A DNA stretch of 64,000 nt from Escherichia coli (GTDB lineage: Bacteria > Pseudomonadota > Gammaproteobacteria > Enterobacterales > Enterobacteriaceae). The notes beneath the pieces were generated by a model. The model saw only the letters and a program-made list of their open reading frames with translations. It was not told where the DNA came from and made no database searches. The stretch is from NCBI RefSeq assembly GCF_041248615.1, contig NZ_CP158426.1. One strand, given 5' to 3'. Of the stretch, positions 3,271 to 44,265 are shown in pieces. A program made the translations under genes and the position numbers. Position 1 is the stretch's first letter, and each line of letters begins with the position of its first letter.

Positions 3271-6200
3271 TGTCGACGAGACACTAGATCCTTTGCGCTT
3301 GCCCTTACAGGGTGAGCGCCTGATTGAAGCCTCTGCCGGCACAGGCAAAACCTTTACGATTGCGGCGCTCTATTTGCGCCTGTTACTTGGACTAGGCGGT
3401 TCCGCCGCCTTTCCCCGCCCGCTGACCGTTGAAGAACTGCTGGTGGTCACCTTTACCGAGGCTGCCACGGCAGAATTGCGCGGTCGTATCCGTAGCAATA
3501 TCCACGAGTTGCGCATCGCCTGTCTGCGTGAAACCACCGACAATCCACTGTACGAACGCCTGCTGGAAGAGATCGACGATAAAGCGCAAGCCGCGCAGTG
3601 GTTGTTGTTAGCCGAACGGCAGATGGATGAAGCGGCAGTCTTTACTATTCACGGCTTTTGCCAGCGCATGCTCAACCTGAATGCCTTTGAATCCGGCATG
3701 CTGTTTGAGCAGCAGCTGATTGAAGATGAGTCTCTGCTACGCTACCAGGCCTGCGCCGATTTCTGGCGTCGCCACTGCTACCCGCTGCCGCGTGAAATAG
3801 CCCAGGTCGTCTTTGAAACCTGGAAAGGGCCGCAGGCGTTGCTGCGCGATATTAATCGTTATCTGCAAGGCGAAGCGCCGGTTATCAAAGCACCGCCGCC
3901 CGATGATGAAACGCTGGCTTCCCGTCACGCGCAAATTGTGGCGCGTATTGATACGGTAAAACAGCAGTGGCGCGACGCAGTGGGTGAACTGGATGCGCTG
4001 ATCGAATCTTCTGGTATTGATCGACGCAAGTTTAACCGTAGCAATCAGGCTAAATGGATCGACAAGATCAGCGCCTGGGCAGAAGAAGAGACAAACAGTT
4101 ATCAGTTGCCGGAGTCGCTGGAAAAATTCTCCCAGCGTTTCTTAGAAGATCGCACGAAGGCCGGGGGGGAAACCCCGCGACATCCACTGTTTGAGGCGAT
4201 CGATCAACTGCTTGCAGAACCATTGTCGATCCGCGATCTGGTGATCACCCGCGCATTGGCTGAGATCCGCGAAACAGTAGCGCGTGAAAAACGCCGCCGT
4301 GGCGAATTGGGTTTTGATGACATGTTAAGTCGGCTCGATTCCGCGCTGCGTAGCGAAAGCGGTGAGGTGTTGGCAGCGGCGATCCGTACGCGATTCCCGG
4401 TGGCAATGATCGATGAATTTCAGGATACCGACCCCCAGCAGTACCGAATTTTTCGCCGTATCTGGCACCATCAGCCGGAAACCGCATTGTTGCTAATTGG
4501 CGACCCGAAGCAGGCCATATATGCATTCCGGGGTGCGGATATCTTCACTTATATGAAGGCGCGTAGCGAAGTTCACGCCCACTACACTTTAGACACCAAC
4601 TGGCGTTCCGCACCAGGAATGGTGAACAGCGTGAATAAGCTTTTCAGCCAGACTGATGACGCGTTCATGTTTCGCGAAATACCGTTTATTCCAGTGAAAT
4701 CAGCCGGGAAAAATCAGGCGTTACGTTTTGTATTTAAAGGTGAAACACAGCCTGCGATGAAAATGTGGCTGATGGAAGGCGAAAGCTGCGGCGTTGGCGA
4801 TTATCAAAGTACCATGGCGCAGGTATGTGCTGCGCAAATCCGCGACTGGCTACAAGCCGGACAGCGGGGCGAAGCGTTGCTGATGAACGGCGACGACGCG
4901 CGTCCGGTGCGTGCTTCGGACATCAGTGTGCTGGTGCGCAGCCGCCAGGAGGCCGCCCAGGTGCGCGATGCCTTAACGTTGCTGGAAATCCCTTCCGTTT
5001 ACCTTTCGAACCGCGACAGTGTTTTTGAAACTCTGGAAGCGCAGGAAATGCTTTGGTTGTTGCAGGCGGTGATGACGCCCGAACGTGAGAACACCCTGCG
5101 TAGTGCGCTGGCAACGTCAATGATGGGGCTGAACGCGCTGGATATCGAAACGCTGAACAATGACGAACATGCGTGGGATGTGGTAGTCGAAGAGTTCGAT
5201 GGTTATCGGCAAATCTGGCGCAAACGTGGCGTTATGCCGATGCTGCGGGCGCTGATGTCGGCGCGTAACATTGCTGAAAACTTGCTGGCAACGGCAGGCG
5301 GTGAGCGGCGTCTTACCGATATCTTGCATATCAGCGAACTGCTACAAGAAGCCGGAACGCAGCTGGAAAGTGAACATGCGCTGGTACGCTGGTTATCGCA
5401 ACATATCCTCGAGCCAGACAGTAATGCCTCCAGCCAACAAATGCGTCTCGAAAGTGATAAACATCTGGTGCAGATTGTCACGATCCACAAATCGAAAGGG
5501 CTGGAATATCCATTGGTCTGGCTGCCGTTTATCACCAATTTCCGCGTCCAGGAGCAGGCGTTTTATCACGATCGCCACTCGTTTGAGGCAGTTCTGGATC
5601 TTAATGCTGCGCCAGAAAGCGTCGACCTCGCGGAGGCCGAACGTCTGGCGGAAGATCTGCGTTTGCTTTACGTGGCGCTGACACGTTCGGTTTGGCATTG
5701 CAGTCTCGGCGTTGCACCGCTGGTGCGCCGTCGTGGCGATAAAAAAGGTGACACCGACGTCCACCAAAGTGCGCTCGGGCGTTTGCTGCAAAAAGGGGAA
5801 CCGCAAGATGCGGCAGGGCTTCGCACCTGTATTGAAGCGTTATGCGATGATGATATTGCCTGGCAAACGGCACAAACTGGTGATAACCAACCCTGGCAGG
5901 TTAATGATGTTTCTACAGCAGAGCTGAATGCGAAGACGTTACAACGATTGCCCGGCGATAACTGGCGCGTCACCAGCTACTCTGGTTTGCAACAGCGTGG
6001 TCACGGTATCGCCCAGGATTTGATGCCTCGGCTGGATGTCGATGCTGCAGGCGTTGCCAGCGTCGTTGAAGAACCGACGTTAACACCACATCAGTTTCCG
6101 CGCGGTGCGTCACCGGGGACGTTCTTGCACAGTTTGTTTGAAGACCTGGATTTTACCCAGCCGGTTGACCCGAACTGGGTGCGGGAAAAACTGGAACTCG

Positions 6201-8631: not shown

Positions 8632-8640
8632 ACGTAATTG

Positions 8641-13185: not shown

Positions 13186-13273
13186 TGTGATATTCTGTAT
13201 GCCGTTTTTACGGATATGACAGGGTGAGGGGTAACCTCACATCCTGATTATTGACTAAGTGCGCGTTGTTCAT

Positions 13274-13371
13274 GCCGGATGCGGCGTGAACGCCTTATCC
13301 GGCCTACAAATCATGCAAATCCAAAATATTGCAGGAGTTATGTAGGCCTGATAAGCGTAGCGCATCAGGCA
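13274..13371. repeat. BIME: two REP elements in inverted orientation
   Basis: gccggatgcggcgtgaacgccttatccggcctaca (13274-13307) and tgtaggcctgataagcgtagcgcatcaggca (13341-13371) match the REP consensus. Confidence 0.8.
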
Positions 13372-13423
13372 TTTATGCGTTTAGGGTGAGGGATAACCTC
13401 GCCCTTTTTAATTCTGAGGTGCT

Positions 13424-14230
13424 ATGTCTGTGGTAATTAGTGATGCATGGCGTCAGCGTTTTGGTGGCACAGCGCGTCTGTATGGTGAAAAAGCGTTGCA
13501 ACTGTTTGCTGACGCGCATATTTGTGTGGTTGGTATCGGTGGTGTCGGTTCCTGGGCGGCGGAAGCGCTGGCGCGCACGGGGATTGGCGCAATCACGCTT
13601 ATCGATATGGATGATGTGTGCGTCACCAATACCAATCGGCAAATTCATGCCCTGCGCGATAACGTTGGGCTGGCAAAAGCGGAAGTTATGGTGGAGCGTA
13701 TTCGCCAGATTAACCCGGAGTGCCGTGTAACGGTGGTGGATGATTTCGTGACGCCGGATAACGTAGCGCAGTATATGAGCGTGGGTTATTCGTACGTGAT
13801 TGATGCCATTGATAGTGTACGGCCCAAAGCGGCGCTGATTGCTTATTGTCGGCGCAATAAAATCCCACTGGTCACAACCGGTGGCGCGGGTGGGCAGATT
13901 GATCCGACGCAGATTCAGGTTACCGATCTGGCGAAAACGATTCAGGACCCGCTGGCGGCGAAGTTGCGCGAGCGCCTGAAAAGCGATTTTGGCGTAGTGA
14001 AAAACAGTAAAGGTAAGCTCGGCGTGGATTGCGTGTTTTCTACTGAAGCGCTGGTGTACCCGCAGTCAGACGGTACGGTGTGTGCGATGAAAGCCACGGC
14101 AGAAGGGCCGAAGCGGATGGATTGTGCATCTGGATTTGGCGCGGCAACGATGGTGACCGCCACCTTTGGGTTTGTTGCGGTTTCTCATGCGCTGAAGAAG
14201 ATGATGGCGAAAGCGGCGCGTCAGGGTTAA
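13424..14230 (+). CDS. tcdA: tRNA threonylcarbamoyladenosine dehydratase (E1-like, CsdL)
   Basis: 268 aa; ThiF/MoeB-type nucleotide-binding motif VVGIGGVGSWAAEALARTG. Confidence 0.9.
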   Translation: MSVVISDAWRQRFGGTARLYGEKALQLFADAHICVVGIGGVGSWAAEALARTGIGAITLIDMDDVCVTNTNRQIHALRDNVGLAKAEVMVERIRQINPECRVTVVDDFVTPDNVAQYMSVGYSYVIDAIDSVRPKAALIAYCRRNKIPLVTTGGAGGQIDPTQIQVTDLAKTIQDPLAAKLRERLKSDFGVVKNSKGKLGVDCVFSTEALVYPQSDGTVCAMKATAEGPKRMDCASGFGAATMVTATFGFVAVSHALKKMMAKAARQG

Positions 14231-39928: not shown

Positions 39929-41269
39929 ATGAGTTCTCAATTTACGACGCCTGTTGTTACTGAAATGCAGGTCATCCCGGTGGCGGGCCATGACAGTATG
40001 CTGATGAATCTGAGTGGTGCACACGCACCGTTCTTCACGCGTAATATTGTGATTATCAAAGATAATTCTGGTCACACTGGCGTAGGGGAAATTCCCGGCG
40101 GCGAGAAAATCCGTAAAACGCTGGAAGATGCGATTCCGCTGGTGGTGGGTAAAACGCTGGGTGAATACAAAAACGTTCTGACGCTGGTGCGTAATACATT
40201 TGCCGATCGTGATGCCGGTGGGCGCGGTTTGCAGACATTTGATTTGCGTACCACTATTCATGTAGTTACCGGGATAGAAGCGGCAATGCTGGATCTGCTG
40301 GGGCAGCATCTGGGGGTTAACGTGGCATCGCTGCTGGGCGATGGTCAACAGCGTAGCGAAGTCGAAATGCTCGGTTATCTGTTCTTCGTCGGTAATCGCA
40401 AAGCCACACCGCTGCCGTATCAAAGCCAGCCGGATGATAAATGTGACTGGTATCGCCTGCGTCACGAAGAAGCGATGACGCCGGATGCGGTGGTGCGCCT
40501 GGCGGAAGCGGCATATGAAAAATATGGCTTCAACGATTTCAAACTGAAGGGCGGTGTACTGGCCGGGGAAGAAGAAGCCGAATCTATTGTGGCACTGGCG
40601 CAACGCTTCCCACAGGCGCGTATTACCCTCGATCCTAACGGTGCCTGGTCGCTGAACGAAGCGATTAAAATCGGTAAATACCTGAAAGGTTCGCTGGCTT
40701 ATGCAGAAGATCCGTGTGGTGCGGAGCAAGGTTTCTCCGGGCGTGAAGTGATGGCAGAGTTCCGTCGCGCGACTGGCCTGCCGACCGCAACCAATATGAT
40801 CGCCACCGACTGGCGGCAGATGGGCCATACGCTCTCGTTACAATCCGTTGATATCCCGCTGGCGGATCCGCATTTCTGGACGATGCAAGGTTCGGTACGT
40901 GTGGCGCAAATGTGCCATGAATTTGGCCTGACCTGGGGTTCACACTCTAACAACCACTTCGATATTTCCCTGGCGATGTTTACCCATGTAGCCGCTGCTG
41001 CACCGGGTAAAATTACTGCTATTGATACGCACTGGATCTGGCAGGAAGGCAATCAGCGTCTGACCAAAGAACCGTTTGAGATCAAAGGCGGGCTGGTACA
41101 GGTGCCGCAAAAACCAGGATTGGGCGTAGAAATCGATATGGATCAGGTGATGAAAGCCCACGAGCTGTATCAGAAACATGGGCTTGGTGCGCGTGACGAT
41201 GCGATGGGAATGCAGTACCTGATTCCTGGCTGGACGTTTGATAACAAGCGCCCGTGCATGGTGCGTTAA
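39929..41269 (+). CDS. gudD: D-glucarate dehydratase
   Basis: 446 aa from [23 protein letters not shown]; the track ORF has an 8-codon upstream extension. Confidence 0.9.
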
Positions 41270-41283
41270 GACAGAAAACCAAA

Positions 41284-41310
41284 ACCGGCTCTTTCAGGAG
41301 CCGGTTTGAG
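41284..41310 (+). terminator. Putative terminator after gudD
   Basis: accggctc-tttcagg-agccggt hairpin followed by TTG. Confidence 0.5.
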
Positions 41311-41343
41311 ATTACTGACGAAGTGGCTTACGGGGACGGTTTT

Positions 41344-41444
41344 CCCCTCGCCCTTTCAAGGAGAGGACCGGGGTGAGGGTAATCATTCGCACTTGCGTTG
41401 GCCTGTTCCCCTCACCCTAACCCTCTCCCCGGAGGGGCGAGGGG
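41344..41444. repeat. GC-rich imperfect palindromic intergenic element (unclassified)
   Basis: cccctcgccc (41344-53) pairs perfectly with gggcgagggg (41435-44); inner ggggtgaggg pairs with cccctcaccc. Confidence 0.6.
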
Positions 41445-41508
41445 ACTGTCTGTGCTGCTCCCAGCATTGGCATTGGACGGAACCTATTTTGACTCGACAA
41501 AACGTCCA

Positions 41509-44265
41509 TTACCCGAGAATTTTGCTGGCTTCGCGCGCTACATTATCCATCTCGTCCAACAGTTCCAGCAGCTCCGGCTCCAAATCTTCTTCTTTAGTAC
41601 CGCTACGTAGCTGTTGTTCGATCAGTTGGCAGAGATTCTTCATACGCGGCACACCGCTATAGCCGCAACTGCCATGCAGTTTATGAATCAAATCAACCAG
41701 GCCTTCCGGGTTTTCTCCAACCAGCTGTTCCTCAACTTTGTTGCGAACTTCAGGCAGGAAATCGAGTAACATTTGCAGCATATCGCGCGCTAAATCGGTT
41801 TTTCCTGCTGCCTGGCGTAGTGCCAGTTGCCAGTCGAGGGTCGCATTCGGGTTCACCACAATTTCGTTGACTTCGGGCGTCACGACGCGAGAGGAAATAC
41901 CGCTGCCAGGCTTGTAGCGCAACAACAAATTATGCAATCGCTCTTCTTCAATCGGTTTCGCCAGATAATCGCTCATCCCTGCGCCAAGCAGCTTCTCTTT
42001 TTGCCCGGCCATTGCATGCGCCGTTACCGCGATAACTGGCGTTTGTTGCTGATGGGGGAGCTGGTGGATGAGTTCGCAGGCCCGAATGCCGTCCATGTCC
42101 GGCATTTGAATATCCATTAAGATCAAATCGAACGGCATCTGTTTCGCCCGTTCAACCGCCTGATGCCCGCTATCGCAAAGTTCCACATGTTGCACCATAT
42201 CTTCCAGCAATGCGCCGATAAGTTTCAGGTTAGCGGGGTTGTCATCAACCGCCATGACTGTCATTGCCAGCTTACTTTCATCGGTTACAGGCAAAAGCGT
42301 GTTTTGTTTGTGATGACAAAATTCCGTCAGGGCAGGTAACAGGCGCGTAGGTGTTAATGGTTTCAGCAGACACGCGCCGATACCATCTTGCTTAAGTTTT
42401 TCAGCATTGACTTGTGCATGGCAAGGAAGTGCCAGCATCAGAAAATCGGTCATCGATACCGCTTTCGCTAATCGCTCATGTTGCATTGTTAGCGGCTCGC
42501 GGAAGGTCACCGCAATGCCTAATAACATCATGTCGTAATGCGCGGGAGGCAGCGCGGAGAATGTTGGGCTATAAACCACTTCCAGCGGCGTTTCACTTAA
42601 AATATCCAGCGTGCATTGCGCTGCTGCGGAGTTTGGTTCGACATAGGCCAGGCGCTTGCCGGCGAGGCACTGGGTGGATGGCCCTTCGATAATAATGTTC
42701 GGATTCAGATCGAGATTAATGTGGAACCAGAAAGTTGAACCGCGATTCGGCTGGCTATGGAACGAAATATCGCCGCCCATTTCATTAACCAGTTTTTGTG
42801 TAATCACCAGCCCCAGCCCGGTGCCACCATGACGGCGGGAAATACTGGCATCAGCCTGTCGGAAGGCCTGGAATAAGCGCGATTGATCGCGTTCAGGAAT
42901 ACCAATGCCGGTATCCCGAATCTGCACTTCAATCTGCACTTTGGTATTACTCAGCGCACGTTTTTCTACCAGAATATCAATGTTGCCATTCTCGGTGAAT
43001 TTAATTGCATTCCCTACCAGGTTAGTGATGATTTGCTGTAATCGCAGTGGGTCGCCAATTACGTTATCGGGCACGTCGCTCTTAATATTGAGCGTCAGTT
43101 CCAGCCCTTTATCGTGAGAAGAATGTGCCAGCAGGGTAACGACTTCATCCAGCGTGCTGCGTAGTGGGAATGGAATACTTTCCAGAATCAGCTTACCCGC
43201 TTCCAGTTTCGAGAAGTCGAGAACATCATTAATAATTGCCAGCAAATTATTTGCCGAACGTTCAATCGTATTCAGGTGATCGCGCTGCGTTGGTGTTAAT
43301 TCTGTTTTCAGCGTCAGGCGAGTAAAGCCAATAACACCATTCAGTGGTGTACGCAGCTCGTGTGACATATTTGCCAGAAACTCGGATTTAATACGCGCCG
43401 CTTCCTGGGCGCGCTTTTTCGCCAGATCCAACTCAACGTTCTGAATTTCCATCTGCTCCAGCGTTTCACGCAGATCGGACGTCGCCTGGTCGATATTGTG
43501 CTGCATCTCTTCGTGATAAGCAGCCAGCGACATTGCCATCGAGTTGATACCGTTTTTCAGCATATCCAGCTCGCCGAGCATAAATCCTTCCACCCGGCTG
43601 TCGAGTTGCCCGCGACGGATGCGGTCGACGGTATTCACCATATTGCGAATCGGACCGGTTACATCGCGCATTAAGCGCCAGCCAAAAATAAGCGCAATAC
43701 CGATACAAAACAGCATCATCACGCTGGAAATAAAGATCTCTTTATATTGCTGCAAGCGAACCGATTTAAGATCCAGCTCAAGCGCAATATATCCCAACAT
43801 ATTTTGACTATTTTTGGCATCGCTACTGGGCGATTCGTCGGGGGAGTAACTCTCAGAAATAATCGGTGTGCGGAGGATCATAATATCGCCGTCACGAGTG
43901 ACAGTGAGCTGGCGAGGAAACGGCACGTTGCTGCCGAGCTGCATTGATGAGGGATCAAGATGAAAATTGGAGGTGACAAAGAGTCGGTTATTTTCATCAT
44001 AAACCGAAATCGCGCGAACAATATCGGAATGGCGACGATGCAGTACGCTTATTAACTGACCGATAGATTCGCGATTTTGCAGGCTCATGCCATATTCAGT
44101 AGAAACTGCAAGCGGCTCAATAATGCTGGCTCCGGCATCTTCCAGTTGACGCTGCAAATCGTTATAGCGATGCACAACGAAAAAGATACTCAGCAATAAA
44201 CCAATAAGGACGGTCGGTGCCAGGATCAGAATCATCATGCGTGCGCGCAGGCTGTAGTTGGTCAT
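41509..44265 (-). CDS. barA: Hybrid sensor histidine kinase BarA (partner of UvrY)
   Basis: 918 aa with HAMP, HisKA/HATPase, receiver and HPt domains. Confidence 0.95.

Follow-up and report, generated by a model that had tools for sequence, protein, structure and literature searches.

An inverted BoxC/PIT/TMECO repeat pair in the gudD-barA gap of Escherichia coli

The gudD-barA locus

In the stretch of Escherichia coli DNA analysed here (64 kb in all, hereafter the window), the genes gudD (glucarate dehydratase; 39929-41269, plus strand; annotated by RefSeq in the identical stretch of strain ETEC1738) and barA (a sensor histidine kinase; 41509-44265, minus strand; open reading frame list and RefSeq annotation) converge on a gap, and a palindrome identified below as an inverted pair of BoxC repeats lies between their coding sequences. 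Just past the gudD stop codon is a bidirectional intrinsic terminator hairpin (41282-41307), which is scored on the minus strand as AAACCGGCTCCTGAAAGAGCCGGTTT followed by the T-run TGGTTTTCTG, carries on the plus strand the A/T tracts expected of a bidirectional terminator, and is conserved across all aligned alleles of the gap. A preliminary description of this DNA had placed the palindrome beyond the gudD terminator hairpin, and the hairpin is indeed found there. A terminator scan of 41150-41650 returned no other terminator-like site, and a promoter scan of the gap returned no promoter-like site. With this arrangement, gudD transcripts should end ahead of the BoxC element. As the terminator has its T-run on the minus strand, barA transcripts end there too; they must therefore run through the BoxC pair, which makes the pair part of the barA 3' untranslated region (3'UTR). 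This 3'UTR is ~200 nt long, and its interior is a polymorphic filler.

Geometry and folding of the palindrome

The palindrome is built of two arms of ~36 nt that are imperfect reverse complements of each other, as originally described, at 41345-41380 on the plus strand and 41408-41443 on the minus strand. A repeat search drew the arms slightly wider (41343-41382 and 41406-41445, each 40 nt, 78% complementary and 23 nt apart), with nested inner pairings. The outer pairing, which had been reported as perfect, is so over 11 bp, between TCCCCTCGCCC (41343-41353) and GGGCGAGGGGA (41435-41445); the reported inner pairing is also perfect, over 10 bp, between GGGGTGAGGG (41370-41379) and CCCCTCACCC (41408-41417), and a middle pairing of AGGAGAGGA with CCCTCTCCC has two mismatches. 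The motif GGGTGAGGG followed by TAA, another feature of the preliminary description, is located at 41371-41382. The span originally given for the element, 41344-41444, holds good for the palindrome and is too narrow for its extent, given that the unit common to paralogues is wider (~41333-41459).

Folding was carried out with ViennaRNA, which allows Watson-Crick and GU pairs only. RNA of the plus strand reached -74.4 kcal/mol (z -7.4), RNA of the minus strand -67.7 kcal/mol (z -5.6), and single-stranded DNA -32.7 kcal/mol (z -4.9), each value lying below those of all 200 dinucleotide shuffles. The gudD-barA palindrome is real, beyond chance, and the cruciform- or hairpin-forming potential that had been suggested for it is upheld in silico, where single strands fold far better than shuffled sequence.

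Identity of the repeat

BoxC has been part of the E. coli literature since the early 1990s, and BoxC/PIT repeats were reportedly treated again later by Hoyne/Maher, in 2000. The BoxC repeat, the PIT (potential intrastrand triplex) element and the TMECO triplex motif of E. coli are one and the same (Holder et al. 2015, PMC4666352). Each arm consists of a pyrimidine block followed by two purine blocks, with the published consensus CCCTCNCCC-N3-6-GGGNGAGGG-N3-GGGNGAGGG, and the second loop reads TTA in type A and CCG in type B (PMC4666352). For MG1655, 23 copies are listed, and five of the sites are inverted pairs, each made up of one A and one B (PMC4666352).

The preliminary description had suggested a comparison with Box C, and on carrying it out we found that the element matches the published consensus, in full on the minus-strand arm and in part on the plus-strand arm. 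The minus-strand arm (41408-41443) is a type A 'mm' arm with TTA in loop 2; read on its own strand as CCCTCGCCCCTCCGGGGAGAGGGTTAGGGTGAGGGG, it agrees with the consensus exactly and is the same as TMECO no. 23 of K-12. The plus-strand arm (41345-41380; CCCTCGCCCTTTCAAGGAGAGGACCGGGGTGAGGGT) is of type B and comprises block 1 (CCCTCGCCC; 41345-41353) and the loop TTTCA, block 2 (AGGAGAGGA; 41359-41367), the CCG of loop 2 (41368-41370) and block 3 (GGGTGAGGG; 41371-41379). Here blocks 1 and 3 and the CCG loop agree with the consensus, and block 2 is off by two substitutions, whether measured against the strict GGGNGAGGG or against GGGAGAGGG. A relaxed consensus with a degenerate block 2 (GGNNGAGGN), searched with up to two substitutions allowed, matches the plus-strand arm with one substitution, and the same search revealed no further BoxC copy in the window. 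The nearest K-12 copy to this arm is TMECO no. 10 (CCCTCGCCCTTTCAGGGAGAGGGCCGGGGTGAGGGT), 2 nt apart with both changes in block 2, and strain 315 carries this arm at the gudD-barA locus with block 2 intact. The plus-strand arm is a degenerate member of the family, of the published category 'TMECO mutated'.

Between the arms lies a 27-nt spacer (41381-41407; AATCATTCGCACTTGCGTTGGCCTGTT), which is common to three of the four aligned K-12 pairs. Type B on the plus strand and type A on the minus strand together reproduce the inverted A+B pairing rule of the five K-12 sites. A minor intergenic repeat family was among the options that the preliminary description had left standing, and the consensus match, along with paralogues across E. 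coli genomes, settles on that option; the identity as a BoxC/PIT/TMECO pair is secure. The element is already known, and the finding is an ordinary one, since BoxC is a small intergenic family known since the 1990s. The gudD-barA locus is not named in the supplements of Holder et al. (PMC4666352), and its BoxC copy is not among the 23 listed K-12 copies because K-12 has no BoxC at gudD-barA.

Other families considered

Several other known families were tried and rejected. Membership of the REP/BIME family fails on the absence of a GCCGGATG-type core, in place of which the element has polypurine/polypyrimidine blocks; the earlier view that this is not a canonical REP stands, with no core GCCGGATGCGGCG in the gap at up to one mismatch. 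Searched across the window with the same tolerance, GCCGGATGCGGCG occurs only at 8640, 13274, 27420 and 40480, and nowhere within 41311-41492. For ERIC/IRU we used the ERIC2 primer site AAGTAAGTGACTGGGGTGAGCG as a stand-in for the conserved central ERIC sequence, and it had no match in the whole window with up to three mismatches. A scan of the gap against Rfam, with E up to 10, gave eukaryotic miRNA models as the best matches, at 17-22 bits against gathering scores of 54-105 and with E of at least 0.12, and membership of an Rfam RNA family was discarded. The BoxC hairpin is not an intrinsic terminator either, as no T-run follows it on either strand.

The motif GGGTGAGGGNTAAC, proposed in the preliminary description for a genome-wide search, turned out to be a poor probe, with two mismatches to the element and no exact match to it. 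Its exact matches in the window, at 13222 and 13384, are unrelated to the element and belong to the mltA terminator hairpin, which is duplicated on either side of a REP insertion. At that site, the mltA-tcdA gap (13186-13424), the window has ~164 bp more than strain ETEC1738 (where the gap is 75 bp), with REP sequences inside (core at 13274) and imperfect direct copies of ~21 bp on either side, at 13221-13241 (CAGGGTGAGGGGTAACCTCAC) and 13383-13403 (TAGGGTGAGGGATAACCTCGC), both of which are copies of the mltA terminator hairpin. Judging from this layout, the extra DNA seems to have come in as a REP/BIME insertion, with duplication of the terminator hairpin. Cores reading GCCGGATGCGACG at 8640 and 27420 mark further REP/BIME sites in the window, and the near-match at 40480, inside gudD, is probably due to chance.

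Paralogues and the two forms of the gap

A megablast search with 41270-41510 against 5,426 complete E. coli genomes returned 18,471 places in 4,553 genomes (median of 4 per genome), nearly all of them confined to 41333-41459 (query positions 62-190) and 82-88% identical. No genes are annotated under these matches, the copies being intergenic. Megablast, a multiple alignment and the nhmmer envelope all delimit the full repeat unit at 41333-41459, made up of the arms, the spacer and ~12 nt on each side (CGGTTTTC ... GACTGTCTGnGC). When the element is aligned with the K-12 pairs at ygfF-gcvP, hrpB-mrcB, fepB-entC and alx-sstT, the arms and ~12 nt outside each are common to all, and the spacer TAAtnnTTCGCaC...GGCCTGTT is common to the window, ygfF-gcvP, fepB-entC and alx-sstT, that of hrpB-mrcB being shorter and different. 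Beyond ~12 nt outside the arms the flanks are unrelated, and the real unit is therefore ~125 bp. As spacer and flanks align too, the paralogue matches are unlikely to be low-complexity artefacts, and as they are just 82-88% identical, the paralogues are old. A single-copy element that related strains do not conserve would have spoken against a repeat family; the element is instead multi-copy, with a copy at this same locus in 174 genomes.

The gap itself exists in alternative forms. Alignment with K-12, A3176 and FDAARGOS_1253 defines an allele-specific filler at 41311-41492, with sharp homology breaks at 41311, at the terminator, and at 41492, 16 nt past the barA stop codon. K-12 and most other strains have in its place an unrelated segment, similar in length, that contains REP sequences (...TGTAGGCCGGATAAGGCGTTAACGCCGCATCCGGCA...). 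The K-12-type REP/BIME filler is present in 5,210 of the 5,426 complete genomes (96%) and the BoxC filler in 174 (3.2%). No direct repeat flanks either 41311-41492 or 41333-41459, and the alleles differ by a ~180-bp replacement, not by a clean insertion.

Instability of BoxC loci

In the literature, BoxC-bearing loci are reported as more variable from strain to strain than control loci. Two deletions bounded by direct repeats were seen here: 64 bp are gone between copies of GGGAGAGGG at hrpB-mrcB in strain 07_3636, and 75 bp between copies of CCCTCTCCC at alx-sstT in strain CD306. A simple hairpin is left behind in each case; both deletions fit replication slippage and agree with the 'palindrome effect' of Holder et al. 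(PMC4666352). We looked for pre-insertion sites among the K-12 loci and accepted none. The pair at ygfF-gcvP stands at the edge of a larger variable region, missing from ~2,400 genomes, and was set aside as a clean pre-insertion site for bordering that region. The 'empty' allele of hrpB-mrcB, the sole clean empty site among the loci examined, was rejected because a target duplication is missing and the allele resembles the product of a deletion, and alx-sstT because its variants are slippage deletions or an unrelated replacement. In E. coli S19-651 and many other strains (span of 818 bp vs 601 bp), the alx-sstT gap holds, instead of the K-12 BoxC pair, an unrelated GC-rich filler annotated with a 303-bp hypothetical open reading frame.

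Distribution beyond E. coli

An exact-pattern scan of one genome per species (GGGGTGAGGG-N15-45-CCCTCACCCTAACCCTCTCCC) matched at least 120 loci, and the matches listed include Alpha-, Beta- and Gammaproteobacteria, Planctomycetota, Gemmatimonadota and Anaerolineae, in agreement with the published account of a widespread motif (Holder et al. 2015, PMC4666352). The pattern leaves block 1, loop and block 2 of the left arm unforced, as well as the loop and GGGAGAGGG of the right arm; by a strict definition, this unforced architecture is present in 74 of 123 among the matches listed. Within the matches listed, spacers and loops are lineage-specific, the loops are often self-complementary though differing in sequence, and the local stem is extended by a mean of 1.0-1.2 bp, vs 0.2 bp in shuffles. 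These observations suggest that what is conserved structurally is, in each arm, the block 1:block 2 hairpin. The pair pattern is rare in viruses, being found in 6 of 2.9 million viral contigs.

Some lineages have forms of their own. Elsewhere dispersed, BoxC pairs stand head-to-tail in the Planctomycetota metagenome-assembled genome (MAG) VGYW01000037, four of them with a 117-bp period (positions 3419-3828 of locus L095). In a Xanthobacteraceae MAG, three copies have in left-arm loop 1 an extra hairpin-forming insert of ~33 nt (CATAGCCCGTCGACGACGGGCGTGA..CGCCC), pointing to a further small repeat lodged within the BoxC arm. At four loci of the Alphaproteobacteria MAG_CA70, a BoxC subfamily carries a different inverted-repeat-like end (GAGGAAATAAGTGACTCGATTGGCAAC, with GAGGAAATAGATGAGCC opposite), and given these different ends, elements of at least two kinds may have taken up the BoxC pair.

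An IS4-type element in Serratia oryzae

In Serratia oryzae J11-6, a BoxC pair is the core of a ~176-bp element whose ends are 18-bp inverted repeats (TAATGCCGGTCAGTTAAG), 17/18 identical to each end of the IS4 of E. coli K-12. Target duplications of 11-13 bp accompany 10 of the 14 full copies, one more has 8 bp, and the duplicated target sites, where inspected, are terminator-like hairpins. IS4 makes duplications of 11-13 bp and prefers AAA-N20-TTT targets, and the IS4 copy of K-12 is flanked by one of 12 bp. Judged by its ends and duplications, the Serratia element is a bona fide IS4-type MITE, of which we found no description in the searchable literature.

The pair inside it and the BoxC pairs of E. 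coli are probably homologous, to judge from a profile of the Serratia element (177 positions), which meets copies from E. coli, Enterobacter and Superficieibacter over the core only (~55-156). Beside the window copy, the best matches to IS4 ends scored 9-10/18, and over the window and K-12 copies together 8-11/18, the level of random sequence (null mean 9.6). IS4 ends were not found at the Enterobacter and Superficieibacter copies, and among the sampled taxa only Serratia has them. No E. coli genome or plasmid carries 80% or more of the Serratia element, the window copy has no 11-13-bp target duplication, and no transposition signature was seen at this or any other E. coli copy.

Discussion

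We consider it probable that the gudD-barA element, an inverted BoxC pair and a ~125-bp unit of a known dispersed family, persists here as a decaying selfish or neutral relic with no dedicated function. A point against this reading is that the plus-strand arm fails the strict consensus, by two substitutions in block 2. On the relic reading, the window copy would act mainly through its structure, by adding a very stable hairpin to the barA 3'UTR, and its internal direct and inverted 9-mers would favour replication slippage and rearrangement at the locus. In its dissemination, the BoxC family as a whole probably took the form of non-autonomous transposable units or travelled inside them. An arm of consensus sequence can fold, as a single strand, into a hairpin plus third strand, an intrastrand triplex shown in vitro by CD and NMR on consensus oligonucleotides, and in vivo DMS footprinting did not detect the triplex (PMC4666352).

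Since the pair stands between the barA stop codon and the terminator, and is hence transcribed with barA, it might instead be an RNA element of the 3'UTR, a hairpin of ~-68 kcal/mol that adjusts how stable barA mRNA is, by blocking 3'-to-5' exonucleases or by serving as a site of processing or pausing. We regard this as unlikely. The strong fold of minus-strand RNA (z -5.6) would suit such a role, and so would the other allele, with its REPs in the same position. REPs are known mRNA stabilisers. The REP allele is another structured repeat in the same slot, and some structure could therefore be wanted there. However, in the long hairpin none of 33 pairs has compensatory changes across six E. 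coli copies, and we see no sign that an RNA structure is under selection in E. coli; the canonical terminator hairpin farther downstream already protects the barA 3' end, the pair is present at this position in just 3.2% of genomes, and members of the family occur in all kinds of gene context. Published tests of BoxC/PIT elements found no promoter, terminator or RNA-polymerase effect.

A more improbable alternative is an active or recent MITE- or REPIN-like element that inserted in the gudD-barA gap and was mobilised in trans, e.g. by the InsG of IS4. The Serratia oryzae homologue, with IS4-type ends and 11-13-bp duplications in terminator hairpins, speaks for it, as do the presence/absence polymorphism at gudD-barA and the resemblance of an inverted doublet with spacer to REPINs. 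Against it, IS4-like ends are absent beside the window and K-12 copies (best matches of 8-11/18 vs a null mean of 9.6), the Serratia profile meets E. coli copies over its core only (~55-156 of 177), the gap alleles are a ~180-bp replacement and no clean insertion, flanking direct repeats are absent, and paralogues that are 82-88% identical are hence old.

Least probable of all, and hardly to be expected, is a protein-binding or cruciform/triplex signal that acts at the level of the chromosome (in replication pausing, as a nucleoid protein site or as a selected recombination hotspot), for although the 9-mer blocks and pair architecture are conserved in distant phyla among the matches listed, where other taxa extend the local stems by different yet self-complementary loops, and although PIT elements are reported to stop DNA polymerase in vitro, there is no known binding protein, DMS footprinting in cells gave no triplex protection, most E. 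coli have no element at gudD-barA, and copies decay by deletion. The present analysis brought no positive support for any of these three alternatives.

To return to the reading as a relic, the source of such relics is a matter on which we can offer a tentative suggestion, itself somewhat doubtful: BoxC pairs may be more than structure-prone DNA, with non-autonomous transposable units built around them as a conserved core. We raise it because the block architecture, with species-specific spacers and loops, spans Alpha-, Beta- and Gammaproteobacteria, Planctomycetota, Gemmatimonadota and Anaerolineae among the matches listed, and because of the case on which it rests, the Serratia oryzae pair, which IS4-type ends enclose and whose 11-13-bp target duplications fall in terminator hairpins. 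If true, the E. coli copies, the window's included, would be decayed relics of such elements, and the strain-to-strain 'genomic instability' of BoxC would in part reflect past transposition into terminator regions. No paper linking BoxC/TMECO to a transposase was found within the searchable literature, and Holder et al. reported no association with mobile elements (PMC4666352). For the spread of BoxC/PIT/TMECO repeats, the Serratia IS4-type element supplies a concrete, testable candidate mechanism.

For the window, the gain is one of annotation, namely the naming of a known repeat that is unannotated in RefSeq. The two natural forms of the gap, BoxC pair vs REP/BIME, differ only in the structured repeat that fills the barA 3'UTR, and make a ready-made comparison for the effects of repeats on the mRNA of a global regulator kinase.

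Among known systems, REP/BIME repeats and REPINs resemble the element in being short GC-rich palindromic intergenic repeats whose inverted doublet forms a long hairpin, and the BoxC pair fills the very 3'UTR slot held by REP/BIME in 96% of E. coli. REPINs are inverted REP doublets mobilised by RAYT transposases, and we know of no RAYT associated with BoxC. With H-DNA and mirror-repeat tracts the element shares mirror blocks of purines and pyrimidines, with the potential for a G*G-C purine-motif triplex, as well as an association with genomic instability; unlike them, BoxC is a family of dispersed repeats and not a simple tract, and its proposed triplex is intrastrand, formed by three consecutive blocks on one strand. 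The Serratia MITE has a BoxC pair core of identical block architecture (blocks and linkers), and the ~10 nt directly outside the arms look alike by eye, the spacer being aligned poorly by the profile; it differs in its additional flanks (~60 nt left, ~30 nt right), which end in the IS4-type repeats, and in its 11-13-bp duplications. The closest system is the known BoxC/PIT/TMECO family itself, with which the element has in common the three-block sequence, the A/B types, the inverted A+B pairing, the ~27-nt spacer, and an intergenic, multi-copy occurrence at loci polymorphic between strains, and from which it differs in the two substitutions in block 2 of the window's B arm (AGGAGAGGA).
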